Sequence record: OX638287
DNA: 49,834 nucleotides
Direction: 5' to 3' (one strand)
Source: Escherichia phage UP30
The translations under genes and the position numbers were made by a program. The notes beneath the pieces were generated by a model. The model worked only from the letters and a program-made list of their open reading frames with translations, was not told the DNA's origin and searched no databases. This document shows, piece after piece, positions 1-49,834 of the stretch; position 1 is the stretch's first letter, and each line of letters begins with the position of its first letter.

Positions 1-516
1 ATGAGCAATACCAATCAGGAATTAAAAATCACCGATATGATTCGCCTAACCTGCGATGCAATGTACCGCGACAAAGGCATGAAAGAGTTCTCTTTCGTGG
101 CTGATGATATGGCGAGAGAGGCGGTAAAATTTTACTTCCGAGATCAGGATATTTCAGATGATGAGGTGGAGCGCGGAGCTACCGGGTGGGTGAACCAGAA
201 CCAGGGCGAGGTGGAGAAGCGATTCAAGTCGGCTTTCATCACCCCGATCATTACCCGACACTTCTGCAAGTATGGCAAGGTGGCAAAGGTTAAGGTAGGC
301 AGGAATGACGCAGCAATCACTATGATAACCGTTACCGTTACCGACGAAGAGGCTCCGGTGAAGAAGCGCCGCAGCCGGAAGAAAGTTAGCCTGGCTGATT
401 GCCTGGACTCGTTTGTGGTGGATGTGCGTAAGTTGGCTGATAGCGAGCTAATGACACGTGATGTGAATGAGATCGTGCGCCAGATGAAAGAGCATATTGA
501 AAAGTGTGGACTGTAA
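1..516 (+). CDS. hypothetical early protein (171 aa)
   Basis: ATG at position 1; AGAGGA RBS lies at the window end (49823-49828), implying circular permutation; no motif recognised. Confidence 0.55.
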   Translation: MSNTNQELKITDMIRLTCDAMYRDKGMKEFSFVADDMAREAVKFYFRDQDISDDEVERGATGWVNQNQGEVEKRFKSAFITPIITRHFCKYGKVAKVKVGRNDAAITMITVTVTDEEAPVKKRRSRKKVSLADCLDSFVVDVRKLADSELMTRDVNEIVRQMKEHIEKCGL

Positions 517-528
517 GGAGAGATGACT

Positions 529-789
529 ATGAGCAAGATTAAGCATGACGCCCTGAAAGGTATTTTGATGCGACTGGAGCCGGGCGAGGCATTCCAGCTT
601 AACCCCGAAACGTTCGGATTCGTAGGCTTCTATCGGCTTGGCCTACAGATGAGTTCTCCAGCCGATGAGCTTGTCCGGTATGTGCGCAAGCAATTCGGTG
701 TCGAGATGATTAGTCTGGGCAAAGTGCAAGGCATCCAGCTATTTATCTTCAAGCCAAATAAGATTCGTTGCTTCACCCTGATGAAATAG
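529..789 (+). CDS. hypothetical protein (86 aa)
   Basis: ORF 523-789; second ATG at 529 has better spacing to AAGGAG (515-520); stop TAG is first triplet of dyad box. Confidence 0.5.
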   Translation: MSKIKHDALKGILMRLEPGEAFQLNPETFGFVGFYRLGLQMSSPADELVRYVRKQFGVEMISLGKVQGIQLFIFKPNKIRCFTLMK

Positions 790-835
790 CACTTTTTGTT
801 AAAACCGGATCGGGATAACCTGGTATAGTTATCCC
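787..835 (+). promoter_or_regulatory. early promoter module: dyad box + inverted repeat carrying TGgTATAGT
   Basis: tagcactttttgttaaaac 787-805; gggataacc...ggttatccc 812-835. Confidence 0.6.
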
Positions 836-860
836 ATCAACAACGAATGAGGAAGCGAAT

Positions 861-1055
861 ATGGAAACGCAAATTGACGTAGTGGTTGTTCAGCGTGACT
901 CTACTCATGAAAAGGGTCTGTTCAAGAAGGGAGTCGAAATCACGATAGATCTTGAGGATATGGTTGCATATCACTCGGGCCTCACCTGGAACGTGGTGCG
1001 CGTGGGTAGCGACTACAAACTCAAAGGATTTAACACTTACTTCGCGGAGGCTTAA
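861..1055 (+). CDS. hypothetical protein (64 aa)
   Basis: ORF with GAGGAAG RBS, preceded by box + hairpin promoter module. Confidence 0.55.
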   Translation: METQIDVVVVQRDSTHEKGLFKKGVEITIDLEDMVAYHSGLTWNVVRVGSDYKLKGFNTYFAEA

Positions 1056-1057
1056 TC

Positions 1058-1528
1058 ATGACAACAATCACTGTATTCTTGGCGAAAGACGAACTGGACG
1101 ACGAAATGTCATTCTTCGCGTTTGAGCACAGAACCGGATCGCACTGGCACACTTACAGCCACTACACGGTTATCTCAATCGAAGCGTACGACGGGGATTT
1201 GCTCACTGACAAGCTGAGTGATTTTATTGAAACTGTTAAGACTAGCGAAGGTTGCGAGTGGAAAGAAGATCATGAAGTTATGCGAATGTACGAGATGATT
1301 AATCCGGTTCGCCTTGAGTCGTTCGAGCTTGATCCTGATGTGACTATTAAGGTGAGAAAGCCTGGTGAGTTGTTGCCAGGGATGCGTGTGCTGACTGGTT
1401 GCACAGGCCGTAAGGTGTGGCGCACGGTATCGAAGGTTCGCCAGCGTTCAGAAACATGCTATAGCTTATTCTTTGAAGATGGTTGGAATGAGATGGCTGG
1501 TAGCGAAGTGAAGTACCTCACCAAATAG
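1058..1528 (+). CDS. hypothetical protein (156 aa)
   Basis: ORF, GGAGG RBS, stop TAG embedded in box. Confidence 0.6.
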   Translation: MTTITVFLAKDELDDEMSFFAFEHRTGSHWHTYSHYTVISIEAYDGDLLTDKLSDFIETVKTSEGCEWKEDHEVMRMYEMINPVRLESFELDPDVTIKVRKPGELLPGMRVLTGCTGRKVWRTVSKVRQRSETCYSLFFEDGWNEMAGSEVKYLTK

Positions 1529-1574
1529 CACGAATTGTTAAAACCGGATCGGGGTATCTTGATATAGTTACCCC
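1526..1574 (+). promoter_or_regulatory. early promoter module
   Basis: tagcacgaattgttaaaac; ggggtatcTTGATATAGTtacccc. Confidence 0.6.
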
Positions 1575-1606
1575 ATCGAAACGAGATACCAATCAGAGGA
1601 ATCACC

Positions 1607-1870
1607 ATGTCAATCGTCAAGAATCGCAAAGCAATCGAAGCTACCCGTCACAACAAGCAACACGCGATTTTCATCTCTCGCTACTGCTCAAATATCAATG
1701 ATGGCGCACAGTATCGACGCTATGCAGTTATTGAGCTTTCCCCGTACATTTACAAGGAGTATCTCGAGGATAACGGCAAATGGATTGAGACTGAAGGCAT
1801 GACGAGCTTCTTGATCTGGAATGGTGAATTTCAGGGTTATGACGATATCAGCACTTTAATTGAGGAATAA
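1607..1870 (+). CDS. hypothetical protein (87 aa)
   Basis: ORF preceded by promoter module and CCAATCAGAGGAAT leader. Confidence 0.55.
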   Translation: MSIVKNRKAIEATRHNKQHAIFISRYCSNINDGAQYRRYAVIELSPYIYKEYLEDNGKWIETEGMTSFLIWNGEFQGYDDISTLIEE

Positions 1871-1876
1871 ATAATT

Positions 1877-2104
1877 ATGCCGCGTTACAGCAATCTAACT
1901 CAACTAACCCGCGTCAACGGGCACATGATCCCGGCTAAATCTACTCACTGCGCGAAAGGCGCAAAGCACGGATTATATTTCAAGTGGCGCGGTCAATGGA
2001 ACTTCACGGCGGTGAGCAATTTTTACATGCGCGTTCCTGGTGATGACCCGCAATCGGTAGTAGAAAACTCAATCGGCGACAACAAGATCGAGGTACTAAA
2101 ATGA
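1877..2104 (+). CDS. hypothetical protein (75 aa)
   Basis: ORF, GAGGAATAA RBS. Confidence 0.5.
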   Translation: MPRYSNLTQLTRVNGHMIPAKSTHCAKGAKHGLYFKWRGQWNFTAVSNFYMRVPGDDPQSVVENSIGDNKIEVLK

Positions 2105-2211
2105 ACTTTAATACAGTAGCGCTATGGTCTGCCGTCTGGTTCTTCTGCATGGGTCACGTTATGGTCGGCATTGTGGTAATGCTTCTCCTGTGTGCGGGGG
2201 CGTTCGAATGA
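2101..2211 (+). CDS. putative small hydrophobic protein (36 aa, MNFNTVALWSAVWFFCMGHVMVGIVVMLLLCAGAFE)
   Basis: ATGA start/stop overlap with upstream gene and with next gene; hydrophobic; below the 60-aa ORF-track cutoff. Confidence 0.3.
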   Translation: MNFNTVALWSAVWFFCMGHVMVGIVVMLLLCAGAFE

Positions 2212-2381
2212 TGCGAATATTGATTTTCATGATGGCGGCGGTCGCCATGGCTATCCTGATAGTGTCAGGATGCGGAGAGGTCAGAGATAGCTGTCATAAG
2301 ACCGGGAACCAGGTTACTACGTTTGTGATGGTTGGCAACGTTCTGCTACCAATCACATCAAATGAAATCACTTGCGAATAG
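2208..2381 (+). CDS. putative lipoprotein (57 aa; signal peptide with lipobox IVSGC)
   Basis: In-frame internal ATGATG of ORF 2124-2381; N-terminal hydrophobic stretch then Cys lipobox. Confidence 0.4.
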   Translation: MMRILIFMMAAVAMAILIVSGCGEVRDSCHKTGNQVTTFVMVGNVLLPITSNEITCE

Positions 2382-2390
2382 GATTTAACA

Positions 2391-2582
2391 ATGGCTGATT
2401 TTATGCACCAAATGATTGCAGTATTCAAAGGCAGCGATGACCAGGAAGTGAAAGAGTGCTTTACCGTTGACAAGCCTTATAGTGCGTCGCTTACCAGCTT
2501 CGGGAACATCTCATTGCTTGATGATAATGGAGATCCCTGGATATTCGACGAAGATACTGATTGCTTCGAAATTAAAGAATAG
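2391..2582 (+). CDS. hypothetical protein (63 aa)
   Basis: ORF, stop TAG is start of box. Confidence 0.5.
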   Translation: MADFMHQMIAVFKGSDDQEVKECFTVDKPYSASLTSFGNISLLDDNGDPWIFDEDTDCFEIKE

Positions 2583-2628
2583 CACTTTTTGTTAAAACTC
2601 AATATAGGGGTTGCGCTATAGTAACCCC
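2580..2628 (+). promoter_or_regulatory. early promoter module
   Basis: tagcactttttgttaaaac; ggggttgcgcTATAGTaacccc. Confidence 0.6.
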
Positions 2629-2653
2629 ATCGACAACGAGCGAGGACGATAGC

Positions 2654-3142
2654 ATGAAAATCAAATTACTTTGCACTGGCGGTTATAAAGGCTTTACCCG
2701 AGATCTGGAAGCAGACCCTATCGTGGTTGATGCGGTGAAGTGTGATGATAGCCTCGGCGGCTACCGCGTGAAGTTTGACGACCTGGTTAAAGCTGGTGTG
2801 TACGATCTGGATTATGGACTTTCGGTTAGCCCGGTAGTCGGCCCGGCAGATTTCAACGAGAAGGACGGAACGATGTTCTTTTTTGAATGGGAAGTGCAAT
2901 CAAACATCAAGCCGCGCAAGGTTCGTCTTCTCAGCAATGGCGGCTACCCTATGCGCCCAGGTTATGAGAATCGCACGTTCCCGGTTATCGTTGACTTTGA
3001 AGAAATCACCGCACACTTAGCTTATATCAACGGTGAACAGCTTAATGCTGTTGGATTCGTGGGAGGTATGAATCAAGAGGCGCTATGCTTCTTCCATTGT
3101 AAAGCCGAGCCGTTCGATATTGAGTGCGAATTGGTTTACTAA
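2654..3142 (+). CDS. hypothetical protein (162 aa)
   Basis: ORF after promoter module, GAGGA RBS. Confidence 0.6.
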   Translation: MKIKLLCTGGYKGFTRDLEADPIVVDAVKCDDSLGGYRVKFDDLVKAGVYDLDYGLSVSPVVGPADFNEKDGTMFFFEWEVQSNIKPRKVRLLSNGGYPMRPGYENRTFPVIVDFEEITAHLAYINGEQLNAVGFVGGMNQEALCFFHCKAEPFDIECELVY

Positions 3143-3183
3143 GCACGAATTGTTAAAAGTGGATTTGGCCTGACTGGTATAAT
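3141..3183 (+). promoter_or_regulatory. early promoter module
   Basis: aagcacgaattgttaaaag; TGgTATAAT 3175-3183. Confidence 0.55.
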
Positions 3184-3213
3184 CCCCACATCAACCACTA
3201 AGAGGAAATCATT

Positions 3214-3720
3214 ATGTTGAAATTAGAAGATGTTAAATTCCCGATCAAATTTATCAGCATTGGCTGCGGTGAAATTACGTTCACCAATGAAGATAAGGGC
3301 ACCTGGGCCACTGAGGAAGTGTCTCAGCTTAAGTTGGAGTGGTTTATTGCACGGCATAACGAAGTAAACAAGGAAAATTCACCAAATAAGGACTACCACT
3401 ACATTATGAGTGACGCTCAGGATTCGTACAGCGTGTATGATAATTGGAAGTTGGAAGGTTCCATATTCAACGGTGTAAAACCAGAAATCAAGCCGACGCT
3501 ACAATGCACTCAGATCGAGAACATGCCATTGAGCGCCACACTAAAAGGTGTCCAGCTTGATAGCAAATCCTGGATTGAAATTACCGCCACACCGAAAACC
3601 ATTGAGGTGCACAACGATATCATCACGCTGTTGCTGCATCACGGTGGATTCAAGCATAAGACGGTATCGGGTGAAATCAGCATCAAGCGCGGAACGCTTG
3701 TCCGCTACGAGGTGAAATAA
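3214..3720 (+). CDS. hypothetical protein (168 aa)
   Basis: ORF after promoter module, AAGAGGAAA RBS. Confidence 0.6.
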   Translation: MLKLEDVKFPIKFISIGCGEITFTNEDKGTWATEEVSQLKLEWFIARHNEVNKENSPNKDYHYIMSDAQDSYSVYDNWKLEGSIFNGVKPEIKPTLQCTQIENMPLSATLKGVQLDSKSWIEITATPKTIEVHNDIITLLLHHGGFKHKTVSGEISIKRGTLVRYEVK

Positions 3721-3869
3721 TGGTTACCTGGGTTTTGATTATCCTGATGAGCAATGGACCGGATCACGTATATATGAACAGCCAGCATTCATGCAATGAG
3801 GCTCGGGCAGTCATTGCAGATAACAAGCCGTTCGGATACGAAGTAAAAACTATGTGCGTTAAACGATAG
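3720..3869 (+). CDS. putative small protein (49 aa, MVTWVLIILMSNGPDH...)
   Basis: TAATG overlap with upstream stop, GAGGTG RBS, stop TAG embedded in box; hydrophobic N-terminus. Confidence 0.4.
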   Translation: MVTWVLIILMSNGPDHVYMNSQHSCNEARAVIADNKPFGYEVKTMCVKR

Positions 3870-3914
3870 CACGAATTGCTAAACCTTCCGCAAGGCCATT
3901 TGATATAGTGGCCT
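3867..3914 (+). promoter_or_regulatory. early promoter module
   Basis: tagcacgaattgctaaac; aaggccatTTGATATAGTggcctt. Confidence 0.6.
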
Positions 3915-3949
3915 TATTGAAGCAGGGCAACCAATCAGAGGAATCAGCT

Positions 3950-4156
3950 ATGGCTACACGACTCACTCAGTGGCAGATTTACGACAAGGCATCACGCCTA
4001 CGTGAATCACTTCGCGGACTGACACCGAACGACCGCATGGAGATTATCGGGCACGCATTGCACGAACTCACGCCGCCGGACGTAACCTATCATTCATGCG
4101 GCAATAAATTCTGGAACGTAACATTCGAGGTGAAGAAACATGAGCAAGCGTCATAA
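3950..4156 (+). CDS. hypothetical protein (68 aa)
   Basis: Track ORF starts at 3908 inside the promoter hairpin; ATG 3950 follows CCAATCAGAGGAAT leader. Confidence 0.5.
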   Translation: MATRLTQWQIYDKASRLRESLRGLTPNDRMEIIGHALHELTPPDVTYHSCGNKFWNVTFEVKKHEQAS

Positions 4157-4427
4157 GTTAAAAATCGCTCCGGTACATTTCATCGGGGTAATGAACGGAA
4201 CCAAAACGGCTGAGTTCCGAGTCAATGACCGCAACTTCCAGCCCGGCGATATCCTGGAGCTATGCGAGTTCGAGCGCGATGAGTTTACCGGGTGGGAGGT
4301 TCACGCCAGGGTATCCGATGTTACCGATGTGACGCCATACATCAATCGCGGGTATGACGAGCAAGAATGCGACTTCACGCAATACGTGATGTTATCAATC
4401 AAGCCTTACAGGAAGATTAGGCCATGA
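4140..4427 (+). CDS. ASCH-domain-like protein (95 aa)
   Basis: GTKTAEFR matches the GxKxxExR ASCH signature. Confidence 0.45.
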   Translation: MSKRHKLKIAPVHFIGVMNGTKTAEFRVNDRNFQPGDILELCEFERDEFTGWEVHARVSDVTDVTPYINRGYDEQECDFTQYVMLSIKPYRKIRP

Positions 4428-5080
4428 AATTTGAATGCGTATCTAGTAGCGGATCTGGTTTCAAGTATGGAAAAACTTACGAAGGTGTTCGCGTAAATGA
4501 TGACAGTTTTATCATTACAGCTGAGAACGGTTGCAATGTGAACGTTGTTCGACGTAACGAATACCAGGAAATTTTCCTGCCGTATGGCGGTAGCTCAAAA
4601 TATATCTTCCATCGAATCGTAGATGGTGTTAAATTTAAAGACGTAATTGAAGCAATCAACCAACTACATAATAAAGAGGTAAAAACTATGAAATTCGAAT
4701 GTATCAGCGATAACACCAAAAAATTTACCGTTGGCAAAATCTACGACGCGCCGACTGAGAACGCAAAGCACACTGTAGCGCTAACCGATGACACGGGCCG
4801 CCACCGCATTGCAACCGTGACGCATAATGGCGAAGGTCTTCGCTGGAATAGCGGCGGCACTAAGTTTGCAACGTTCGGCAAGAAGAAGCGGAAATTTAAT
4901 ACCAGTCGAATCAAGGGCGATTTCCGCATCGAACATGGTAAGATTCACAGCGTTAAGCCAAGCGAAGTTGATGGTAAAGTCAAGCCTAAGCTGACCAACA
5001 AGGACATTGATAATCTGGCGAATCTGGCTATGGCTACCGTGCTTCTTATTTCTCTTATCGTGCTGTTTTTCGTAGTTTAA
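4424..5080 (+). CDS. membrane-anchored protein with two tandem MKFEC repeats (218 aa)
   Basis: Internal duplication (MKFECVSSSG... / MKFECISDNT...), C-terminal hydrophobic helix LAMATVLLISLIVLFFVV. Confidence 0.55.
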   Translation: MKFECVSSSGSGFKYGKTYEGVRVNDDSFIITAENGCNVNVVRRNEYQEIFLPYGGSSKYIFHRIVDGVKFKDVIEAINQLHNKEVKTMKFECISDNTKKFTVGKIYDAPTENAKHTVALTDDTGRHRIATVTHNGEGLRWNSGGTKFATFGKKKRKFNTSRIKGDFRIEHGKIHSVKPSEVDGKVKPKLTNKDIDNLANLAMATVLLISLIVLFFVV

Positions 5081-5088
5081 CTTAAAAT

Positions 5089-5120
5089 GGGAATCGTTCC
5101 TGAGCGGTTCCCTATTTTTA
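5089..5120 (+). terminator. intrinsic terminator
   Basis: 8-bp stem gggaatcg/cggttccc then TATTTTTA. Confidence 0.45.
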
Positions 5121-5237
5121 TGAGGTGAATATGAATAGCTTTATGCCTGATTTTAAGAACTGGAAAAACGAACCTCCATCATTTCATGAGTTGTTATTCT
5201 GCCTCCTGTTTCTGACTCTATCTCTTAAGGGTGTTTT

Positions 5238-5456
5238 ATGGCTACTATCATGACAGCAGAAGATGCAGCACGCGACGCAGTGGAAGGAATGCGCCCAAAT
5301 AGCTCCAGAATCGCCCACTACTACAAATCTGAGGTGTCGGCAGTGCAATTGACCCACGAAATTTTAAGGCTCCCACAGGTCGATTCAGCGCGCGTAGTGA
5401 CGTGCTTAAAAAATTATTTTTGCATTGCTATTAAAACGAATAGCACGAATTGCTAA
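5238..5456 (+). CDS. hypothetical protein (72 aa)
   Basis: ORF with AAGGGTG RBS; stop TAA embedded in box. Confidence 0.35.
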   Translation: MATIMTAEDAARDAVEGMRPNSSRIAHYYKSEVSAVQLTHEILRLPQVDSARVVTCLKNYFCIAIKTNSTNC

Positions 5457-5488
5457 AACCTATCAAGGGGAATGCGCTATGATTCCCC
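5441..5488 (+). promoter_or_regulatory. early promoter module
   Basis: tagcacgaattgctaaaac; ggggaatgcgcTATGATtcccc. Confidence 0.55.
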
Positions 5489-5513
5489 TACACCAACAAG
5501 CGAGGAAACACAC

Positions 5514-5960
5514 ATGAAACACTTAATCTGTATTGAAGCACCTAACGATGAATACACTCTTCACGGCATTGGTATGTTCAAAGGTCACTATATGACCGCA
5601 AGCATTTACGACGCGCATCGAGGTGACGGCGATCTAATGATTAAGTCAAAAGAGGTTAATCCGTACATCATGCAGAATCTTGGTAATAACGAATATATGG
5701 CCTACGGATGCAATGCGGTTTACAAGCACATCAAGATCCGCAAGCGTGTAGTGCGTGCATTCAAGAAAATTGCAATGAAGCACTGGAAGATGAGCAAGAA
5801 GGACGCCGGACGCTGGGCGCGCAATGTTGCTGACTCATACTTCTACCGTAACGGTGAGTCCTGCTACTTCCTTATCGATGAACTTATGGAAAACTGCGGA
5901 GGCGACTTCAGCCAGATTAGCTTTGACGATTGGGCTAACTATGAGATTAGTTGCTGGTAA
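5514..5960 (+). CDS. hypothetical protein (148 aa)
   Basis: Track ORF starts at 5472 inside the hairpin; ATG 5514 follows GAGGAAACA RBS. Confidence 0.5.
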   Translation: MKHLICIEAPNDEYTLHGIGMFKGHYMTASIYDAHRGDGDLMIKSKEVNPYIMQNLGNNEYMAYGCNAVYKHIKIRKRVVRAFKKIAMKHWKMSKKDAGRWARNVADSYFYRNGESCYFLIDELMENCGGDFSQISFDDWANYEISCW

Positions 5961-6009
5961 TGGCACGAATTGCTAAAACTTGCTCAAGGGTATTTGATAG
6001 AATGCCCTT
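5961..6009 (+). promoter_or_regulatory. early promoter module
   Basis: tggcacgaattgctaaaac; aagggtatTTGATAGAATgccctt. Confidence 0.55.
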
Positions 6010-6043
6010 CGTTGAGTTAAGCAACCAATCAGAGGAATAAATC

Positions 6044-6577
6044 ATGGATAAAATTACAATTTGGGGTCAGACTATCAACCTGTTTCTCGGCACGCGTCGA
6101 GTTGCAATCTTTGACTTCGACGGAACACTGAGCGACGGATCTGGTAGACTTCACCTGCTACCGACAAAGGATTTGCACTTGACTGAAAGCTGGTCCGAGT
6201 TTAACCGCGCGGCAATATTTGACAACCCTATCCAAAGCACGATCGATGTGATGAACTCTATGTTTGCAGCTGGTTATCATGTGATCATTTTAACCGGGCG
6301 AAGCGATGAGGTGCGTTACGCATCTGAGTTATGGCTTAAGCATCACGGCGCTCGATATGATTACTTAGTCATGCGACCGCACACTGACAACCGCAAAGAC
6401 ACGGTAATGAAAGAAGAGGCGGTGCGCGCGATCGGTATTGATAATATTCTGGCGGCCTGGGATGACTCACCTCAAATTATTCCATTACTCCGTTCGCTTG
6501 GAATAACCACTTACGCTGTAGTTGATTATGGCGATAAAGTTCACGATCATTTAAAATCTCACGGGGTAGATGAATGA
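6044..6577 (+). CDS. HAD-superfamily phosphatase (177 aa)
   Basis: FDFDGTL (DxDGT motif I), ILTGRS, AWDDSPQ motifs. Confidence 0.6.
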   Translation: MDKITIWGQTINLFLGTRRVAIFDFDGTLSDGSGRLHLLPTKDLHLTESWSEFNRAAIFDNPIQSTIDVMNSMFAAGYHVIILTGRSDEVRYASELWLKHHGARYDYLVMRPHTDNRKDTVMKEEAVRAIGIDNILAAWDDSPQIIPLLRSLGITTYAVVDYGDKVHDHLKSHGVDE

Positions 6578-6684
6578 ACCTATACGAATTTATTGCAGCA
6601 CATCCGGTATTGACGGTTATCATCCTGTTAATCATCAATCACACTATCATCAATGTGGCAAAATTATTTTTAGGGAGATACTAG
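6574..6684 (+). CDS. putative small membrane protein (36 aa)
   Basis: ATG at 6574 immediately precedes and is out of frame with the upstream TGA (6575-6577); hydrophobic VLTVIILLIINHTII. Confidence 0.3.
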   Translation: MNLYEFIAAHPVLTVIILLIINHTIINVAKLFLGRY

Positions 6685-6685
6685 C

Positions 6686-7258
6686 ATGAAAACAGCTATC
6701 ATTTTAAACGGCGCGCCGGGCGCTGGTAAGGACACTATCGGCGCAATCCTGGCTGACATTTACGATCACGTAGCTTTGCGCAGCTTCAAAGAGCCGATGT
6801 TTGAGATTGCTCGGGCAATACTTGGTGAAACTAACTACGAGTATTTCATGTTCTTGTATGAGGACCGTCGATACAAAGAAGAGCCAGCATCTATCCTGAA
6901 CGGTAAAAGCCCACGCCAGTTTATGATCTGGATTAGCGAAGAGGTAATCAAGCCACAGTTCGGCAATCGCTTCTTCGGTATGCGAGCGGAAAGTAAGGTG
7001 AAAGAGTCGTACTCCCTTTCGGTATTTACTGACGGTGGATTCAAAGATGAGATCTTGCAAATGATTGAAGGCGATATCCAGGTAAAGCTATGTCGAATCC
7101 ATCGCAACGGTTGCAACTTCGATAATGACAGTCGCGATTATATCTACCTGGATGATATGATCGGGGTCAACGGTTATCAGGAATGTGATTTCTTCTCTGT
7201 TGAGGGTCATCCTGAAATTACCGCTCAGCACATAGCCGCCACATTCATCAATAAATAG
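6686..7258 (+). CDS. P-loop kinase, dNMP-kinase-like (190 aa)
   Basis: N-terminal GAPGAGKDT Walker A of the GKDT type seen in phage dNMP kinases. Confidence 0.5.
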   Translation: MKTAIILNGAPGAGKDTIGAILADIYDHVALRSFKEPMFEIARAILGETNYEYFMFLYEDRRYKEEPASILNGKSPRQFMIWISEEVIKPQFGNRFFGMRAESKVKESYSLSVFTDGGFKDEILQMIEGDIQVKLCRIHRNGCNFDNDSRDYIYLDDMIGVNGYQECDFFSVEGHPEITAQHIAATFINK

Positions 7259-7303
7259 CACGAATTGCTAAAGCGTCGGTGGGGTGATTTGATATAGTTA
7301 CCT
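7256..7303 (+). promoter_or_regulatory. early promoter module
   Basis: tagcacgaattgctaaagc; TGaTATAGT 7290-7298. Confidence 0.55.
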
Positions 7304-7330
7304 CATCGACAACGAAGAGAGAAAATCGAA

Positions 7331-7540
7331 ATGATGGTATCAACTGATAAGCTTTTCACTTGCACTAAAACTTCTGAAGTATTCGAACTTATCCATACTG
7401 ATGATGGCGATTTCATGTATGACGGTTGCGACGCTTTCATTGAAGTGAAAGAAAGTGACTATGACGAAGGCGTTTATTATAATCCGGCAGTGAGCACTCA
7501 GTTTTTTACACCGATCGAAGAAGAAGGAGAAGGGGCATGA
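7331..7540 (+). CDS. hypothetical acidic protein (69 aa)
   Basis: ORF after promoter module. Confidence 0.5.
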   Translation: MMVSTDKLFTCTKTSEVFELIHTDDGDFMYDGCDAFIEVKESDYDEGVYYNPAVSTQFFTPIEEEGEGA

Positions 7541-7884
7541 TTACGATTAACCTGTCAGAGAAGCAAGCTCGTGAAATACTTGATGCTATTGGCGATCAAT
7601 TACACGTAAAGGGTGCTGCGGCTGAATTGCTAAACCAGATCGACAAACAACTAACTCCAATATCGACGAATCAAGCTGAGTTTGCAGTCTGGAAAAGTGA
7701 GCGAATCTTGCCAAATATTATCAAGGCGTGGAAGCGCAAGCATAAAAAGCAGGTTAACGTAGAGGAATTATTTACCGATGAATTAAGTCCTGCTAAGGTT
7801 GCTCAGTACCAGTTGCGATACATGGAGTCGGTTTGTAATCAGGTTTTAGGTTTGGATATAAAAATGGTAAAAGGTGATAAATAA
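7537..7884 (+). CDS. hypothetical protein (115 aa)
   Basis: ORF, ATGA overlap with upstream gene. Confidence 0.55.
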   Translation: MITINLSEKQAREILDAIGDQLHVKGAAAELLNQIDKQLTPISTNQAEFAVWKSERILPNIIKAWKRKHKKQVNVEELFTDELSPAKVAQYQLRYMESVCNQVLGLDIKMVKGDK

Positions 7885-8114
7885 TGTTCGGTTTAAGTGA
7901 AGCGGAATGGAATGTAGTAAAGCGTGCGGCTAAAGAACTAAATAAATTCGTCAGTGGCATGAAGAAAGAAGACCGTAAAAACGACAAGATCATGATTGAC
8001 GTGATTTCTACTCATCACAAAAAGGTCGAGCTACTAATTGACCGTTACAAGTTTGTATGGACCGCCGGGTATATTGCCGGGCGCGTAGGCAACAAAGAAG
8101 GGGATTACGAGTAA
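7884..8114 (+). CDS. hypothetical protein (76 aa)
   Basis: ORF, TAATG overlap. Confidence 0.5.
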   Translation: MFGLSEAEWNVVKRAAKELNKFVSGMKKEDRKNDKIMIDVISTHHKKVELLIDRYKFVWTAGYIAGRVGNKEGDYE

Positions 8115-8317
8115 TGGATAATTTACCAAAGAAAGGCAATCAGGTTCGATGCATCACTTCACGCAATGGTGATGCTTTCTCGGCGGGATGTTTGTACGAC
8201 GTTGAAAAAGTCAGTAAAGCTAAGAGACTCGTATATGTGTACGGAGATGATGGAAACATGCATGAGATTGATTACCCGCAGGATATGAGTAAGGGTCAGT
8301 TTGAAATTAATGATTGA
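8114..8317 (+). CDS. hypothetical protein (67 aa)
   Basis: In-frame ATG within ORF 8057-8317, TAATG overlap with upstream stop. Confidence 0.45.
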   Translation: MDNLPKKGNQVRCITSRNGDAFSAGCLYDVEKVSKAKRLVYVYGDDGNMHEIDYPQDMSKGQFEIND

Positions 8318-8480
8318 CCTACATCCCTGAGCGGTGATAGTATTAATCCCGTAGACAGACGAGGCGCAACGAAGCGCAACGCGTGAGACGATTCTCACTC
8401 TTCCAGCTAACAAGCTCGGTTGCATAGTTGTTAAGCAACGCCGCAGACCCGTAAGCGGCAACAATTCAAGAGGATTGCAT

Positions 8481-8645
8481 AATGCAAAACACTAAAGACG
8501 AATCAGTCAAAATTGAAATTAAAGTAACTCGCAACGGCAAAACCACTCGTTATAAGAAACGTTTGAATCCGGGCGAGGCTGTTATTGGTCGCATTTCTGG
8601 CGTTATGATTAAGGCGCAGGAAGATGAAGCGATTCAAAGTTAAAT
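8481..8645 (+). CDS. putative small basic protein (54 aa)
   Basis: ATG after AAGAGGATTGCATA RBS; not in ORF track (<60 aa). Confidence 0.3.
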
Positions 8646-8659
8646 TAATCATTCGAAAG

Positions 8660-8809
8660 ATGGGGATGTTTTGCCAGTCGTGCAAGCAATCTTTCGAAAC
8701 TGAATTATCAGCAACCAGTCAGGAAGAGGCCATCACGAAAGCTAAGAAACTTTCTGGAGCCAATCTTGACACTCACAAAATAAACATTGAATTAATAAAG
8801 GAGATTTAA
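8660..8809 (+). CDS. putative small CxxC protein (49 aa)
   Basis: In-frame internal ATG of ORF 8624-8809; start uncertain. Confidence 0.3.
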   Translation: MGMFCQSCKQSFETELSATSQEEAITKAKKLSGANLDTHKINIELIKEI

Positions 8810-8810
8810 T

Positions 8811-9038
8811 ATGACCATTTTTTTATCGATTCTTGCTGGTGTCGTTATTTTTGGTGCTGGTTTGTTTGCTGGCTTCGCACTTGTTGCGGCCGCAATTGCG
8901 ATGGACGCGAAGGATAAGACTGGCGTATGGCTGACCTACTCACCTAAGAAGGACCAATGGGAAATGTTTGGCGACTTTGCTCACTGCTACTCTAAAGCTC
9001 AGACCCACCCTAAAGGAATTAAGCGACGATTGTCGTGA
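8811..9038 (+). CDS. small membrane protein (75 aa)
   Basis: Hydrophobic N-terminal half; followed by intrinsic terminator. Confidence 0.5.
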   Translation: MTIFLSILAGVVIFGAGLFAGFALVAAAIAMDAKDKTGVWLTYSPKKDQWEMFGDFAHCYSKAQTHPKGIKRRLS

Positions 9039-9047
9039 TAAACACTA

Positions 9048-9070
9048 ACCCGCTTCGGCGGGTTTTTTTA
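9048..9070 (+). terminator. intrinsic terminator at end of early block
   Basis: cccgc-ttcg-gcggg then T7. Confidence 0.7.
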
Positions 9071-9081
9071 TGCCTGCAATA

Positions 9082-9107
9082 TGGTAAAATAGCACTAAAT
9101 GTTAAAC
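9082..9107 (+). promoter_or_regulatory. terS promoter: extended -10 TGgTAAAAT directly followed by dyad box
   Basis: TGGTAAAAT 9082-9090; tagcactaaatgttaaac 9090-9107; ATG 9123. Confidence 0.45.
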
Positions 9108-9122
9108 AAAGAGGATGTATTT

Positions 9123-9647
9123 ATGAGTGAACCTAAGAATGCTCCCGTAGTCCAGGGAGGTAATTTCAAAGAGCTATACAAGAAAAAGTTCGGCACTGTT
9201 CTTGCGAAGAACCGGGCAATGACGCCTGAGCAATTATTCGATCTATCAGTGAAGTACTTTGAATGGGCCGAAGATAATGCGATTAAGGCGTCTGAGTCTG
9301 CCAGCTTCCAGGGTGGCGTTTACGAGTCACTTGTTCATAAACCTCGCGTCTTCACCTGGACCGGATACCGACTATTCATCGGCGCAAGCGAGGCCGCGAT
9401 CATTAAATGGAAGCGCGAGGAGGAATACAGTGAGGTTATGGAGTTCGTGGAATCCGTAATCAACGAGCAAAAATTCCAACTTGCCGCCAACGGTGTTATT
9501 AACGCCTCCTTTATCGGTAAGGATTTAGGGATCGATAAGCCAGCTTCAATCAATATCGAAAACTCGGCAGCTTCCGCGTCGACCGCCGTCGCCACTACTG
9601 AGGACGCAATGAAAGAGGCAGTAAACAGCATTCTTGATATGCTTTAA
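9123..9647 (+). CDS. terS: terminase small subunit (putative)
   Basis: Position immediately upstream of TerL; size; ATG 9123 with AAAGAGGA RBS (track ORF starts at 9099 inside the box). Confidence 0.5.
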   Translation: MSEPKNAPVVQGGNFKELYKKKFGTVLAKNRAMTPEQLFDLSVKYFEWAEDNAIKASESASFQGGVYESLVHKPRVFTWTGYRLFIGASEAAIIKWKREEEYSEVMEFVESVINEQKFQLAANGVINASFIGKDLGIDKPASINIENSAASASTAVATTEDAMKEAVNSILDML

Positions 9648-9686
9648 CGTTACGGGCGTGCAAGCGCCCATACAGGAGACTTGATT

Positions 9687-30200: not shown

Positions 30201-30202
30201 AA

Positions 30203-30695: not shown

Positions 30696-30900
30696 TTCGT
30701 CAAATTTCTATCATATATGTTCAAAATTTAATCAATAGGGATTCCATTTATGGATATCTATGTATTTCTAAGAAAAAGCGGTTACAAGTGTTACGCAATA
30801 GACAGCACACAAAAACTGACTCAAGTTATTGATTCAGTTGATGCTGGTTGTAACTTGAGCAATATAGACACGCAATTACACACCAATTACATGTATTCGA

Positions 30901-30928
30901 TTGACTAAATGCTGTTAATGGCTATAAT
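30901..30928 (+). promoter_or_regulatory. canonical sigma70 promoter of recombination module (TTGACT-16-TATAAT)
   Basis: -35 30901-30906, -10 30923-30928, AAGGAG 30945-30950. Confidence 0.6.
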
Positions 30929-30959
30929 GGATTCATCGTAAACGAAGGAGATAAACGCA

Positions 30960-45696: not shown

Positions 45697-45750
45697 CGGT
45701 GTAAATGATACACCGCCAATGGTACACGCGTTTTGCAAAAAGTGCTATTA
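45697..45750 (-). promoter_or_regulatory. promoter module (minus strand)
   Basis: Minus-sense tagcactttttgcaaaac; hairpin with TATCAT; AAGGAG. Confidence 0.5.
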
Positions 45751-45751
45751 G

Positions 45752-46168
45752 TTATAAGTATTTGGCCTCAAAGGTTGTGCCGTCCGCGATGCTGAATCCA
45801 ACCTCTTCGCGAAACAGCGTCCAGCGATATCCATCCTCATCAAAGATGTAGCCAGCCACTCCACCAAGCGCACGACCGCTTTCCACCTGGTAGCGCTTTC
45901 CAACCTTGAATGATTTTTTCATGGGGTTGCGATGTTCAAGCCCGGTGCACTTTAGCGTCTTGGTTTTAAGTTCAGTGAACTTCGCGAAGTAGATTTCATC
46001 AGATCCGTGAATCTGTAATTCATCGTGTTTCTCAAGTTTTAAATACTTTCCGCATTTTAATTTAATTTCGCGAGTTCCGTCGTAACGCTCACGACCTTTA
46101 TACAGATTGTTTACTTCGAAGCCTGTGATTTTTTCTGCGGAAGTGCATTTCAGTTTGATGGATTTCAT
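45752..46168 (-). CDS. hypothetical protein (138 aa)
   Basis: ATG 46168 after CCAATCAGGAG leader and promoter module. Confidence 0.5.
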   Translation of the reverse strand: MKSIKLKCTSAEKITGFEVNNLYKGRERYDGTREIKLKCGKYLKLEKHDELQIHGSDEIYFAKFTELKTKTLKCTGLEHRNPMKKSFKVGKRYQVESGRALGGVAGYIFDEDGYRWTLFREEVGFSIADGTTFEAKYL

Positions 46169-46199
46169 TGCGCTCACTCCTGATTGGTTTTCTTGAATA

Positions 46200-46256
46200 A
46201 GGCCACTTTATCAAATGACCTTACGGCAATATTAACAAATCGTGCTATTTACCAGG
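46200..46256 (-). promoter_or_regulatory. promoter module (minus strand)
   Basis: Minus-sense tagcacgatttgttaat; aaggtcatTTGATAAAGTggcctt. Confidence 0.5.
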
Positions 46257-46458
46257 GAATATAATCTTCGTCGTCCTCATGAGTATCATCACCAGGTAAC
46301 TCAAAATTGGGATCGTATTCGCTTTCGGCATCCATATCCATATTTCCCAAAGCCTCGTCAAGCGTAATTTCTTTATATGCAACCTTGATACACCATTCAG
46401 CACCAAGCCCGGCATCAAGAGCGGCAAAATAACGAGTCCAGAAATTATCCTGTTCCAT
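46249..46458 (-). CDS. small acidic protein (69 aa) with SSB-tail-like C-terminus DEDYIPW
   Basis: ATG 46458 after GGAG; many Asp/Glu; stop embedded in box. Confidence 0.5.
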   Translation of the reverse strand: MEQDNFWTRYFAALDAGLGAEWCIKVAYKEITLDEALGNMDMDAESEYDPNFELPGDDTHEDDEDYIPW

Positions 46459-46462
46459 TAAA

Positions 46463-46687
46463 TTAACTCCATGAATTAATGTAAATTGAGTTAGCCTCAA
46501 GCGTTGCGCGGACGTCGGCATCTGTTGCATTTACTAAGCGCGAGCCTGGCGTGCTGCCAATAACGTTATTACCGTTGCGAGTTTTAGTTACCGTCATTGA
46601 AATAAAACCGGAAGACTTATCCATTTTAATAACTACACGACCTTTAGCGTTCAGGTGCTTGATGATATTCTCAACTTTAATGCTCAT
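46463..46687 (-). CDS. hypothetical protein (74 aa)
   Basis: ATG 46687 after promoter module and AAAGGA RBS. Confidence 0.5.
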   Translation of the reverse strand: MSIKVENIIKHLNAKGRVVIKMDKSSGFISMTVTKTRNGNNVIGSTPGSRLVNATDADVRATLEANSIYINSWS

Positions 46688-46715
46688 TTCTAATTCCTTT
46701 GTTTCGTTTGGTGTG

Positions 46716-46767
46716 GGAGTAATATATATCACTCCCGATTGTATGTCTTTAGCAATTCGTGCTATCA
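46716..46767 (-). promoter_or_regulatory. promoter module (minus strand)
   Basis: Minus-sense tagcacgaattgcta; gggagTGATATATAttactccc. Confidence 0.5.
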
Positions 46768-46908
46768 GTACTCAGAAATTACTTTGCACTCTTTGATTGT
46801 TCCACCCAAAACTACTTTCTGCATCATTGCTTTTTGGTGGCTATCGTAAACGCGAACATTTTTTACGCTATTAAATTTACCCGTATAGAAGGTGTGAATA
46901 TAAATCAT
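46765..46908 (-). CDS. putative small protein (47 aa)
   Basis: ATGA coupling with upstream stop; stop TGA abuts box; below ORF-track cutoff. Confidence 0.3.
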   Translation of the reverse strand: MIYIHTFYTGKFNSVKNVRVYDSHQKAMMQKVVLGGTIKECKVISEY

Positions 46909-47225
46909 TTTTTACCGTCCCACGTTTGATATGCTGTAACCAGGTTGATGCTATGGTCGAACTCGTCAATGCTCAGCGATCCGATTCGAACCAGTTCTTT
47001 GTCATGCTTAATATCAATCATCCGGCTATATGGATGACCTGGCACATATTTAAATAGTCTCTTGCTGTCGGCAATATCAGCGTTGATTCCATAGAATCGG
47101 CCTACTGCCGCCTTCACGCGTTCCATGATGTTTTTTTCGTGGATTGCAGCCGCGTTATTCAATGCCGCGACAGTGCTCCCGTTAATCTTCGGTGACTTGG
47201 TTGTGATCTTGTAAGTGTGGTTCAT
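46905..47225 (-). CDS. hypothetical protein (106 aa)
   Basis: ATG 47225 after GGGGGAATA RBS (in-frame within ORF 46905-47291). Confidence 0.5.
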   Translation of the reverse strand: MNHTYKITTKSPKINGSTVAALNNAAAIHEKNIMERVKAAVGRFYGINADIADSKRLFKYVPGHPYSRMIDIKHDKELVRIGSLSIDEFDHSINLVTAYQTWDGKK

Positions 47226-47241
47226 TATTCCCCCTAACCGT

Positions 47242-47442
47242 TCAGGATAGCTTTTGTGCTTCGTAAATGATAACAGGTTCAAGACGTTCAAGTCGAACGC
47301 GGAACGTGTTCATGAATCCTTCGTTGTTCTTCAGCGATTCGAAGGCGTCTGTAGCTTCGATTGCGCTATCCCCCATGTAGGCAACTACGCTCTTTTGCGT
47401 CTCTCGCGAGATCGCAACAACTCGGTAGATATAATCACTCAT
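47242..47442 (-). CDS. hypothetical protein (66 aa)
   Basis: ATG 47442 after AAGGAGG RBS. Confidence 0.5.
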   Translation of the reverse strand: MSDYIYRVVAISRETQKSVVAYMGDSAIEATDAFESLKNNEGFMNTFRVRLERLEPVIIYEAQKLS

Positions 47443-47806
47443 ACAATGCCTCCTTAACACGATCCGCAATGCAGGAGTTTACGGTGATTGAGTAGTTCGC
47501 CACTCCCCACAGTGCAATATTTCCTAACTCAGTGCGCATAGATGGATTGTTAAGCTGAATGATTGTTTCTCCAGTATCGTTATCGACGAAGCGAGATACT
47601 CCTAAATGGTCCACCACGCGCGTTACTCTGTTCACACACTCCATTGCATCACTTACACCATAATAGGCGCTCAGAGCGGCTCTCACAGCCTTCTCTTGCT
47701 TGTTGTAAATCTTGCGCGCGATGTTATCGATCGCTACGTGCTCTTTCTCGTCAGTCTGGATTGCCGTGCTTGCTGTGAAGTCCAGGTCAGTGAACTGCTT
47801 AAACAT
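47435..47806 (-). CDS. hypothetical protein (123 aa)
   Basis: ATG 47806 after full promoter module and leader. Confidence 0.55.
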   Translation of the reverse strand: MFKQFTDLDFTASTAIQTDEKEHVAIDNIARKIYNKQEKAVRAALSAYYGVSDAMECVNRVTRVVDHLGVSRFVDNDTGETIIQLNNPSMRTELGNIALWGVANYSITVNSCIADRVKEALYE

Positions 47807-47831
47807 GATTCTTTCCTCATTTGCTGTTGAT

Positions 47832-47880
47832 GGGATGACTATACCAGCCATCCCGGATGCGCGTTTAGCAATTCGTGCTA
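47832..47880 (-). promoter_or_regulatory. promoter module (minus strand)
   Basis: Minus-sense tagcacgaattgctaaac; gggatggcTGGTATAGTcatccc. Confidence 0.55.
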
Positions 47881-48216
47881 TTAAGCAATATCGAACTCAG
47901 CGGCATATGCTTCCTTGAAGCCAGCTTCACGCATGGTGCGCTTGCTGATTTTGCGCTGGAATTTGTACTGGCTGTTAGGCATAACCCACCAGAAGCAGGC
48001 AGTTTCACGAACGATTTCATATTTACCGTAACGGGTGAAGGTGTCGCGTTCCATATCCGGCTGATTTACACAGGTCAGGAATTTAGCTGCCTTGTCTTCA
48101 GTTTTGATTTCTTCCCACACGAAGGAATCCATACCGTTAACCTTGCAAGCTACCATGATGTACTCAACGCCGTTTTCGATTTTGATGATTTCGTTACCGC
48201 GATTTTCGTATTTCAT
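47881..48216 (-). CDS. hypothetical protein (111 aa)
   Basis: ORF after promoter module; stop overlaps next box. Confidence 0.55.
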   Translation of the reverse strand: MKYENRGNEIIKIENGVEYIMVACKVNGMDSFVWEEIKTEDKAAKFLTCVNQPDMERDTFTRYGKYEIVRETACFWWVMPNSQYKFQRKISKRTMREAGFKEAYAAEFDIA

Positions 48217-48249
48217 TTTCCTGTTCCTGATGTGTATCTCGTTTCGATG

Positions 48250-48298
48250 AGGTAATTATGCCAAATCACACCGATCGAGTTTTAACAAAAAGTGCTAT
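48250..48298 (-). promoter_or_regulatory. promoter module (minus strand)
   Basis: Minus-sense tagcactttttgttaaaac; ggtgtgatttgGCATAATtacctc. Confidence 0.5.
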
Positions 48299-48986
48299 TT
48301 GCGATCGCTTTGAAAAATCCCCTGGGTGATAGCGATCGTATCAGCTTGGTCTTTGCAGACTTGCCGCCCAGCTTGTTCTGCTGCGCAGAGTACCCGTCAG
48401 GCAGATTTACTGGTTTTCTCTCCGGCATGACAAAGTCATCCGAGGTCCACAGGCACGTCTTCTTCGGGTAAGCATCGCGCGGCGCAATATACATCGGGAA
48501 CCAGGGGTGTACGTCATTCTCCGGTAGATAGCCGCCATACTCCCAGGGGTCGAAAGTGTGGTCAGCTTTACGCCAGGCAGATGAAAGAACGCTCACCGGA
48601 TTCTCAATGATGTAAGTCACGCCCAGGCTATCGCCAATGTTCGCAGCAATCCGGGCGGTGGCAACAGCTTTCTCCTGGAATAGCGGATCACGTTCACGCT
48701 TGCTGGCAAAATGACGAGCGCCGCTAACAGCCAGGTCAGTGCACGGCGGGAATGCCATAATGAAATCCGGCTTGCCATACACACCCGCGATCGCATCTCG
48801 CTCGAACTTCTCACCAATGAAGACGTTCACATACTCAATATTCGGATGCTCCACCCGGGCATTGTGCTTTGCATAATCTCCGTGATCGGCTCCGTCAAAG
48901 TTGAAGCACATCACCTTATAGCCTTGCTTTGCCAGTTCATGACCAGCCAGGCCGGAACCGTCGAATAGTGACCAGATTAATTTCAT
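48282..48986 (-). CDS. DNA (cytosine-5)-methyltransferase-like protein
   Basis: LFDGSG (motif I-like), PPCTDLAVSG (Pro-Cys motif IV-like), IIENPV (ENV-like); ATG 48986. Confidence 0.5.
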   Translation of the reverse strand: MKLIWSLFDGSGLAGHELAKQGYKVMCFNFDGADHGDYAKHNARVEHPNIEYVNVFIGEKFERDAIAGVYGKPDFIMAFPPCTDLAVSGARHFASKRERDPLFQEKAVATARIAANIGDSLGVTYIIENPVSVLSSAWRKADHTFDPWEYGGYLPENDVHPWFPMYIAPRDAYPKKTCLWTSDDFVMPERKPVNLPDGYSAQQNKLGGKSAKTKLIRSLSPRGFFKAIANSTFC

Positions 48987-49022
48987 TTGTTGCATTCTCC
49001 TGATTAACCTTATCGCTTACCC

Positions 49023-49148
49023 TTATCGCTTACCCTGACCGTTGCAAGCCGGACACGTGATTCGCTGCATTGTCCAGACTCCAGTGAATAAAGGAACCAG
49101 GGTAAATCCACGACCAGCGCACTGACTACAAACCTGTTTAACTTTCAT
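49023..49148 (-). CDS. putative small zinc-ribbon protein (41 aa; CSQC...CPAC)
   Basis: ATG 49148 after CCAATCAGAAGAGGAAG leader, in-frame within ORF 49023-49217. Confidence 0.4.
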   Translation of the reverse strand: MKVKQVCSQCAGRGFTLVPLFTGVWTMQRITCPACNGQGKR

Positions 49149-49164
49149 TGCTGCTTCCTCTTCT

Positions 49165-49227
49165 GATTGGTTGATGTGATGAATCATACCCTGCCAACCT
49201 GGTCCAGTCGTTAGCAAAAAATGCTAT
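49165..49227 (-). promoter_or_regulatory. promoter module (minus strand)
   Basis: Minus-sense atagcattttttgctaac; TATGAT; CCAATCAGAAGAGG leader. Confidence 0.45.
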
Positions 49228-49413
49228 TCCAATAATTGCTTATTATTCCATCAATGCTGGAATAGGTGGAATAATTTTGATTCCGATTGATTGCAAATGA
49301 TGAAACATGATTATTGCATGGTGTGCAACAGTTGGTTGATTTATTGCTGAGATTACAATGATTGTGAGAGGGAGGATCTAGTGTTACCCGGTTCGCCTGG
49401 TAGTCATCTCCAT
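49228..49413 (-). ncRNA. candidate non-coding transcript between two minus-oriented dyad boxes
   Basis: No ORF >21 aa on either strand; bracketed by boxes; ATTCC/GGAAT repeat cluster. Confidence 0.2.
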
Positions 49414-49434
49414 TTTTAGCAAAAAGTGCTACCG
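49414..49434 (-). promoter_or_regulatory. dyad box without adjacent ORF
   Basis: Minus-sense tagcactttttgctaaaa; next 190 nt leftward have no ORF >21 aa. Confidence 0.4.
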
Positions 49435-49521
49435 ATTACACTTTAACTTGTCACTGCTGTAATATTTGTCTAGAATCACACTTGTGACAAAATTACGCAC
49501 TGTGACACCTCACAATATACA

Positions 49522-49552
49522 TATAGATATATGTATCTATATAATATATATA
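49522..49552. repeat. AT-rich palindrome TATAGATA-N4-TATCTATA and 18-mer tctatataatatatatag shared with 30596-30613
   Basis: Exact 18-mer at 49535-49552 and 30596-30613. Confidence 0.55.
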
Positions 49553-49834
49553 GTATTTTTTTTATTTATATATATAGATAATTATATTGTAATAATTGTG
49601 TATAGTTGTCTTACATTGTCTAGCGTACTGTTGGCATATTTCTATCTGCATGTTTATATATACAGTACTTTTTTGAGAGCTATATATTTCTATATGGACT
49701 CTAGACAGCTAGACAAATGTTACACGGCTTAAAATCGGCTTGCAGGCATTGACAACTCTACGTCGCGCTGTCACAATGGCAATTGTTGACACGTTATGAC
49801 GCCATTTACACGCAAATAGACAAAGAGGATATAT

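Follow-up and report, generated by a model that had tools for sequence, protein, structure and literature searches.

The DNA considered here is related to phage T1 and its kin. In T1 and TLS, restriction analysis revealed headful packaging that is initiated at a pac site and gives 3–4 partially permuted variants (PMC11447400). Terminal redundancy and circular permutation were described for T1-like genomes (PMC4070988, PMC5238451), the pac site of T1 and its relatives was placed in the leading untranslated region (PMC7718038), and PhageTerm analysis of relatives returned either headful packaging or no fixed termini (PMC6763659, PMC13164509). The T1 record annotates a repeat_region 1..2800, i.e., a 2,800-bp terminal repeat starting at position 1, the basis of which is unstated in the record.

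The stretch analysed here (the window) is the whole of sequence record OX638287 from Escherichia phage UP30, 49,834 nt in length. It shares ~90% nucleotide identity with Shfl1, phiL, SH6 and other Tunavirus genomes. By blastn, the window is colinear over its full length with Shfl1 (50,661 bp, a circular record), in which positions 1–468 correspond to window positions 49367–49834 and position 470 to window position 1, i.e., a rotation of 468–469 nt; the T1 genome is likewise colinear, end to end. The size falls in the Tunavirus class (~49–51 kb), the packaging and head proteins are of the T1 type, and 310 of 319 residues (97%) of the major capsid protein are the same as in T1. Scanning the whole window for Rfam families and tRNAs gave no matches. 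The initial annotation had proposed that the window is probably the whole genome, and the full-length colinearity with Shfl1 and T1 bears this out: the genome is complete and the window can be used as such. At the level of sequence comparison, it is confirmed as a Tunavirus (phage T1-like, Drexlerviridae) genome. The reading that we prefer, with a probability of roughly 0.9, is that the window represents one genome unit of a virulent T1-like siphovirus of this genus, linearised at the ATG of the gene-77 homologue, lacking one T and having ends that are adjacent to each other.

Two elements meet at the point where the window is opened:

49823–49834, plus strand: Shine–Dalgarno sequence AAGAGGA, core GAGG at 49825–49828, and spacer ATATAT, serving the ATG at position 1
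1–516, plus strand: first rightward gene, encoding 171 aa, homologous to T1 gp77 and Shfl1p01 (PHROG 11083, E 1e-91)

The last 15 bases of the window read acaAAGAGGAtatat, and the ribosome-binding site that the initial annotation had assigned to these bases is present there, with its GAGG core 6 nt from the ATG in the window and 7 nt from it once the missing T is restored. Both the Shine–Dalgarno sequence and the ATG are kept in all aligned relatives. The gene 1 product is 52% identical to T1 gp77, and homologues are annotated at the same 516-nt size in Shfl1, SA30RD, IME18 and Eco_BIFF; judged by these homologues, the open reading frame is a real, conserved gene. A Pfam search with genes 1 and 2 gave no matches. 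An in-frame TAG lies six codons upstream of the ATG, so gene 1 stops short of crossing the join. The boundary interrupts no gene, and features near both ends are thus best read with the two ends joined.

The two ends of the window are contiguous, as had been claimed from the position of the ribosome-binding site, and this is usual in a phage family with headful packaging. The join between positions 49834 and 1 is spanned by a single alignment piece in 34 related phage records, which are opened at many different places, and also in one piece in 7 IMG/VR contigs found with a degenerate junction pattern; the junction pattern had no match in GTDB genome contigs. The join is further crossed by the Logan contig ERR11523139_67 (run ERR11523139, 49,804 nt), an independent assembly of the same phage, which carries an identical gene 1 at an internal position and whose ends correspond to window positions 29458 and 29490, 20 kb from the window's own opening. 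Compared with the joined window, this contig shows 0 mismatches over 6,516 nt, one extra T apart. The base-by-base comparison covered 16.2 kb of the 49.8-kb contig and the remainder rests on exact length arithmetic, in which (49834 − 29490 + 1) + 1 + 29458 = 49,804 is the exact size of the contig. Opened 20 kb apart, the two assemblies close each other's ends, as expected of a circular assembly.

The extra T is found at the join in ERR11523139_67 and in every aligned relative, and is absent from the window. The join reads ...GAGGATATAT followed by ATGAGCAAT, with a single T between them in the other assembly and in the relatives, indicating a true unit of 49,835 bp and a window that is one base short. 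The exact window junction pattern had no match in IMG/VR because of this missing base, and the T should be put back at the join. The missing base could be taken to mean that a segment longer than one base is absent at the boundary, but this is the least probable of the alternatives weighed here, since ERR11523139_67 equals the window plus exactly one base and all relatives align across the join with that single gap only. A virion chromosome whose fixed ends (cohesive, or exact direct terminal repeats) fall at the window boundaries is highly improbable as well. The ends of the T1 record map just 522 nt away, and the openings of several related records fall within 49313–49400, which suggests that a preferred end probably lies nearby. 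However, a fixed end at the boundary itself would separate a Shine–Dalgarno sequence from its ATG, the independent assembly of the same reads continues through that point, and the terminase shares 99% identity with that of T1, for which headful packaging is documented (PMC11447400). Fixed ends or long terminal repeats at the boundaries, named in the initial annotation as evidence against it, were looked for: terminal repeats are absent, with no overlap of at least 8 nt between the end and the start of the window and no direct repeat between its first 4 kb and last 4 kb, nor does a defined end mark the boundary. A fixed physical end there is rejected on these grounds, together with the crossing by ERR11523139_67.

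The boundary falls within a ~690-nt non-coding region (49149–49834) between diverging transcription units, and is thus located in the main non-coding control region of T1-like phages. The following features lie in or beside this region:

49749–49777, plus strand: conserved sigma-70-like promoter directed into gene 1, TTGACA-17-CACAAT with TG upstream, also annotated in relatives
49183–49227, minus strand: leftward promoter-like element predicted from sequence, a 21-nt family repeat (49209–49227) followed by TATGAT (49188–49183) at the family's fixed offset
49023–49148, minus strand: first leftward gene, for a CxxC...CxxC mini-protein of 41 aa with a DnaJ zinc-finger-like match below the Pfam cut-off
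48282–48995, minus strand: second leftward gene, a DNA methyltransferase by sequence match

The plus-strand site carries a promoter annotation in SA30RD, SA32RD and SA12KD, and the leftward element lies directly upstream of the first leftward gene. All 9 copies of the 21-nt family repeat from 786 to 9107 are on the plus strand, and all 7 copies from 45730 to 49432 are on the minus strand, a switch showing that the polarity of transcription flips in this region. A sigma-70 consensus scan of 48900–49834 returned 7 sites against 3.9 ± 2.1 expected, a count that alone is not significant. The divergent promoters that had been placed at the far end of the window are therefore upheld in part, by the polarity flip, the conserved plus-strand site and the leftward element, and not by the scan count. 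The control region has two arms of small genes, transcribed outward from it in opposite directions.

The packaging genes are identified by their similarity to those of T1, and the ends of the T1 record define a further point of interest:

9099–9647, plus strand: small terminase (TerS), P22 gp3-like (Pfam GP3_package), 172 of 174 residues identical to T1 TerS
9681–11255, plus strand: large terminase (TerL), 518 of 524 residues identical to T1 TerL
49312/49313, no strand: point homologous to both T1 record ends by alignment to T1, candidate pac-proximal chromosome end

TerS scores 39.2 bits against Pfam GP3_package (cut-off 29.4) and also matches PHROG 606, which places it in the pac-recognising type, and TerS and TerL are each 99% identical to their T1 counterparts. 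The point at 49312/49313 sits 522 nt left of the window boundary beside a conserved repeat cluster, and a small palindrome, TTGCA-TGGTG-TGCAA, follows just after it at 49314–49328. By analogy with T1 and TLS, the virion DNA of this phage is probably packaged by a pac-initiated headful mechanism, with terminal redundancy and limited permutation. The P22-gp3-type small terminase would start at a pac site on concatemers, in which, as in replicating DNA, the window ends are adjacent, and 3–4 successive headfuls of ~50.7–51.6 kb each would be filled. Virion molecules made in this way would carry a terminal redundancy of roughly 0.9–1.8 kb and would be only partially permuted, with ends that cluster from ~49.3 kb into the first few kilobases of the window. 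The circular permutation stated in the initial annotation likewise rests on homology to T1 and TLS, where it is limited to 3–4 headfuls from pac (PMC11447400). The same analogy supplies the extent of the redundancy, a pac position close to 49313 and the packaging direction, of which the last is uncertain because the T1 ORF numbers run opposite to the T1 record.

A genome that is complete and has contiguous ends could also be packaged in a sequence-independent, T4-like manner, which would give fully random permutation and no preferred end near 49.3 kb. KanT1 showed no obvious termini by PhageTerm (PMC13164509), SU57 lacked a submolar pac fragment (PMC7718038), and no pac motif was found in the window, all of which would fit such a mode. 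It is nevertheless improbable, as TerS belongs to the P22 gp3 type and matches its T1 counterpart at 99% identity, and the pac-initiated series of 3–4 headfuls was established for T1 and TLS by restriction analysis (PMC11447400). At 2 mismatches, a search of the window for the P22-type pac motif returned a single match where 5.8 were expected, and the motif is judged absent.

Two further elements occupy the same non-coding region:

49211–49295, no strand: conserved non-coding element, a family repeat box, two copies each of TATTCCA and TGGAATA (49225–49273), then TGATT repeats
49435–49748, no strand: AT-rich non-coding module, core of ~20–30% G+C, with short TAGACA/GTGACA/TTACAC repeats, paralogous to 30490–30960

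Conservation of the first extends to T1 and to 134 Klebsiella phage (Webervirus-type) records, and it is a candidate pac recognition site or operator of the leftward promoter. The exact 16-nt site TAGACANNTGTTACAC occurs only in the AT-rich module and in its paralogue at ~30.5 kb. The shorter motif TDGACAM shows no overall enrichment genome-wide (37 against 38.8 expected); it is distinctive solely for its local clustering and for the longer composite site. Single-strand folding of 49215–49440 gave no unusual secondary structure (z = −0.56). Speculatively, the repeat cluster, the two AT-rich modules and the 16-nt site might together serve T1-like phages as pac site and as origin(s) of replication, with lineage-specific motif swaps marking a co-evolving DNA-binding protein; we regard this as unlikely, but if it were true, the ~690-nt region would do more than promoter duty.

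In comparison with T1 (NC_005833, the type Tunavirus), the window shares the gene order and also the non-coding region from which arms of small genes diverge, and the T1 record ends inside that region. The T1 unit is shorter, however (48,836 bp vs. 49,835 bp), and lacks the leftward methyltransferase and neighbouring genes beside the junction; its gene 77 is only 52% identical, the short motifs in 49437–49834 of the window are replaced by GATTAAC/ATTACGC, and its record is opened 522 nt further left. Shfl1 (NC_015456) and the Shfl1-like Tunavirus records show ~90–91% identity over nearly the whole length, and Shfl1 was deposited as circular with a junction sequence shared with the window. It differs in being opened at the equivalent of window position 49367, in the extra T before the ATG, and in a number of small indels or replacements that affect the small genes. 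As for the pac headful packaging of P22, Sf6 and TLS, the gp3-type small terminase is common ground known here from sequence, and the family of this phage is documented to have terminally redundant, partially permuted chromosomes (PMC11447400). A P22-like pac sequence is not found in the window; P22 has its pac site within the small terminase gene, whereas that of the T1 group was placed in a non-coding region ~9 kb upstream of the terminase gene (PMC7718038).

The two ends of the window are contiguous, as the initial annotation had proposed. A 278-nt query across the join, where position 49834 meets position 1, aligned as one piece in 34 related phage records, in which the join lies at varying positions (4.2, 8.0, 15.1, 29.4, 33.6, 36–46 kb, etc.), and seven IMG/VR contigs likewise cross it in one piece. 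The exact protein of gene 1 (ORF 1..516, plus strand, 171 aa) was found mid-contig on one Logan contig, ERR11523139 contig 67 (49,804 nt), which was assembled independently from the same phage. Around gene 1, this contig and the joined window align over 6,516 nt and differ only by one 1-nt gap (0 mismatches). The contig's own ends correspond to window 29458 and 29490, with flanks of 3,444 and 6,192 nt that are 100% identical, and the sum (49834 − 29490 + 1) + 1 + 29458 = 49,804 equals its length exactly. Thus, the window and the Logan contig each close the opening of the other, giving a circular map. The Logan contig lacks exactly 31 nt (window 29459–29489), inside a gene at 29244–30209 (minus strand); this may be an arbitrary break of the circular graph or a variant site.

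Fixed physical ends at the window boundaries were also considered. There is no end/start overlap of at least 8 nt in the window, a blastn comparison of the first 4 kb with the last 4 kb returned only inverted matches of a dispersed promoter-like repeat, and no direct repeat between these two segments is longer than 17 nt or significant. The boundaries show no cohesive-end or terminal-repeat architecture, and the earlier interpretation of a circularly permuted genome stands unrefuted.

Both terminal portions of the window and its middle show ~85–93% nucleotide identity to T1-like siphoviruses of Escherichia and Shigella (Drexlerviridae, Tunavirus). By blastn, the window is colinear end to end with the complete circular record of Shigella phage Shfl1 (NC_015456, 50,661 bp), including a single 41.9-kb aligned piece (window 6041–47882). 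Shfl1 1–468 corresponds to window 49367–49834, Shfl1 470 to window 1 and Shfl1 50440–50661 to window 49143–49366, indicating that the window is the Shfl1 arrangement rotated by ~469 nt, from which nothing is absent except small indels among small genes. Colinearity also holds against T1 itself (NC_005833) and the unit closes as a circular map, bearing out the proposal of a whole genome. No Rfam families or tRNAs were found in the window. The phage collection holds no near-identical record, the best full-length relatives (Shfl1, phiL, SA32RD) being ~90–91% identical, and the isolate is probably, judged by nucleotide identity, a distinct Tunavirus species under the usual 95% rule.

The window is short by one base. 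The join reads GAGGATATATTATG in the Logan contig and GAGGATATAT directly followed by ATG in the joined window, whereas the same-phage assembly and all relatives carry GAGGATATATT-ATG; this longer form occurs in 3/3 aligned records, 7/7 IMG/VR contigs and 7/7 relatives in a further alignment. The alignment has no other gap near the join, except those setting off the more divergent T1 row. The extra T in the Logan contig and in every relative examined indicates that the true unit genome is 49,835 bp, and most likely one T was lost exactly at the window boundary when the circular sequence was cut or sliced.

The window ends in ...ACAAAGAGGATATAT and starts with ATGAGCAAT, placing a GAGG core (49825–49828) 6 nt ahead of the gene 1 ATG. 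This Shine–Dalgarno (SD) sequence and the ATG are kept in every relative aligned, confirming the predicted ribosome-binding site in the window's last bases. Gene 1 matches PHROG 11083 (E 1e-91), its product is 52% identical to T1 gp77, and homologues of equal length are annotated in Shfl1, SA30RD, IME18 and Eco_BIFF. In the joined sequence its frame is open for only five codons 5′ of the ATG; the boundary therefore interrupts no gene. The boundary instead cuts a non-coding region (49149–49834), with the following features.

Features of the non-coding region
49183–49227, minus strand: leftward promoter-like element, leftmost in the region; 21-nt repeat copy (49209–49227), then TATGAT at the family's fixed offset
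49225–49273: two TATTCCA and two TGGAATA within 50 nt, accounting for 4 of the genome's 12 copies
after this cluster: five TGATT repeats, all on one strand; nowhere else in the genome is such a run as dense
T1-end point, where the T1 record ends map, then a small palindrome at 49314–49328
49414–49432, minus strand: orphan 21-nt repeat copy without a −10 element
~49435–49748: AT-rich module, 5′ of the rightward promoter, SD and gene 1
49749–49777, plus strand: rightward promoter (TTGACA, 17 nt, CACAAT, TG ahead), conserved; three related records carry a promoter annotation here

The 21-nt repeat ATAGCACnnnTTGnTAAAA, reported previously for TLS and T1 (PMC11447400), has 27 copies in the window versus 1.9 expected (e.g., 786, 1525, 2579, 5440 and 39090 on the plus strand; 45730, 46230, 47863, 48280, 49209 and 49414 on the minus strand). 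Its orientation follows transcription: all 9 copies in 786–9107 are on the plus strand and all 7 in 45730–49432 on the minus strand. Usually a −10 element, often extended (e.g., TGnTATAGT), follows ~19–20 nt past the repeat, with the next start codon ~75 nt on; the few exceptions (15791, 19558, 36114, 49414) lack a −10 or are on the minus strand in the mainly plus-strand 10–43 kb block. The strand flip of the repeat, together with the conserved rightward site and the leftward element, shows that transcription diverges from the end region. The divergence of the putative early promoters postulated there is thus partly supported, although a sigma-70 consensus scan of the end region (7 sites versus 3.9 ± 2.1 expected) is not significant alone. 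The leftward element is directly followed by the first leftward gene (49148–49023), which encodes a 41-aa CxxC...CxxC mini-protein with a weak DnaJ zinc-finger-like match under the Pfam cut-off; the replacement sequence at this spot in Shfl1 does not align.

The element at 49211–49295, comprising the TATTCCA/TGGAATA pairs and TGATT repeats (~80 nt), shows ~80% conservation across 134 records of Klebsiella phages (Webervirus in the cases inspected) that are otherwise far more divergent from the window, and several of these records start or end within 50–300 nt of its counterpart. This conservation and the nearby record ends argue for a cis-acting function: the element could serve in recognition of pac or as the operator for the leftward promoter. 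A P22-type pac motif was not found, and the fold of the candidate pac region is unremarkable.

Two paralogous AT-rich non-coding modules (30490–30960 and 49435–49834) each lie at a minus-to-plus transcription switch and share sequence that includes an exact 18-nt match, TCTATATAATATATATAG. A 16-nt site, TAGACANNTGTTACAC, has three exact copies in the genome (30513, 30656, 49710), only in these modules. Of the 14 TAGACA copies in the genome, 8 fall in the two 500-nt bins covering the modules, and a ninth lies at 49466. The paired modules may be promoter/operator regions or origins. Between T1 120–541 and window 49437–49834 the backbone is conserved, whereas at matching positions the window lineage has TAGACA/GTGACA/TTACAC motifs and T1 has GATTAAC/ATTACGC direct repeats; beside the divergent gene 77, these swaps look like candidate lineage-specific binding sites.

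Restriction analysis of T1 and TLS revealed pac-initiated headful packaging, from which three or four variants with partial permutation and terminal redundancy arise (PMC11447400). The T1-like family is described as having terminally redundant, circularly permuted genomes (PMC4070988, PMC5238451), PhageTerm assigned headful packaging or no fixed termini to relatives (PMC6763659, PMC13164509), and for T1 and its relatives the pac site was placed in this leading untranslated region (PMC7718038). The window's TerL (518/524 residues), TerS (172/174), a P22 gp3 family member, and major capsid protein (310/319) are nearly identical to those of T1. The T1 record is linear with an annotated repeat_region 1..2800; in the alignment, its position 2 falls on window 49314 and its last base on 49312, placing the T1 chromosome end between 49312 and 49313, 522 nt left of the boundary. 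The headful is estimated at ~50.9 kb from TLS (49,902 + ~1 kb); the T1 record yields an estimate of 51.6 kb, and the T1 paper's abstract reportedly gives 50.7 kb. With a headful of 50.7–51.6 kb, the 49,835-bp genome would have ~0.9–1.8 kb of terminal redundancy, and the ends of successive headfuls would step through the window's first few kb. Permutation is probably limited and pac-anchored near the boundary by analogy with T1; a rightward packaging direction, taken from the T1 annotation only, is uncertain.

Some records of relatives follow the T1 convention for their opening point, others begin at the ATG of the small terminase gene or at random positions, and the window matches the usual database practice of opening circular assemblies arbitrarily. 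All features of the finding fit the textbook behaviour already known for T1-like phages.
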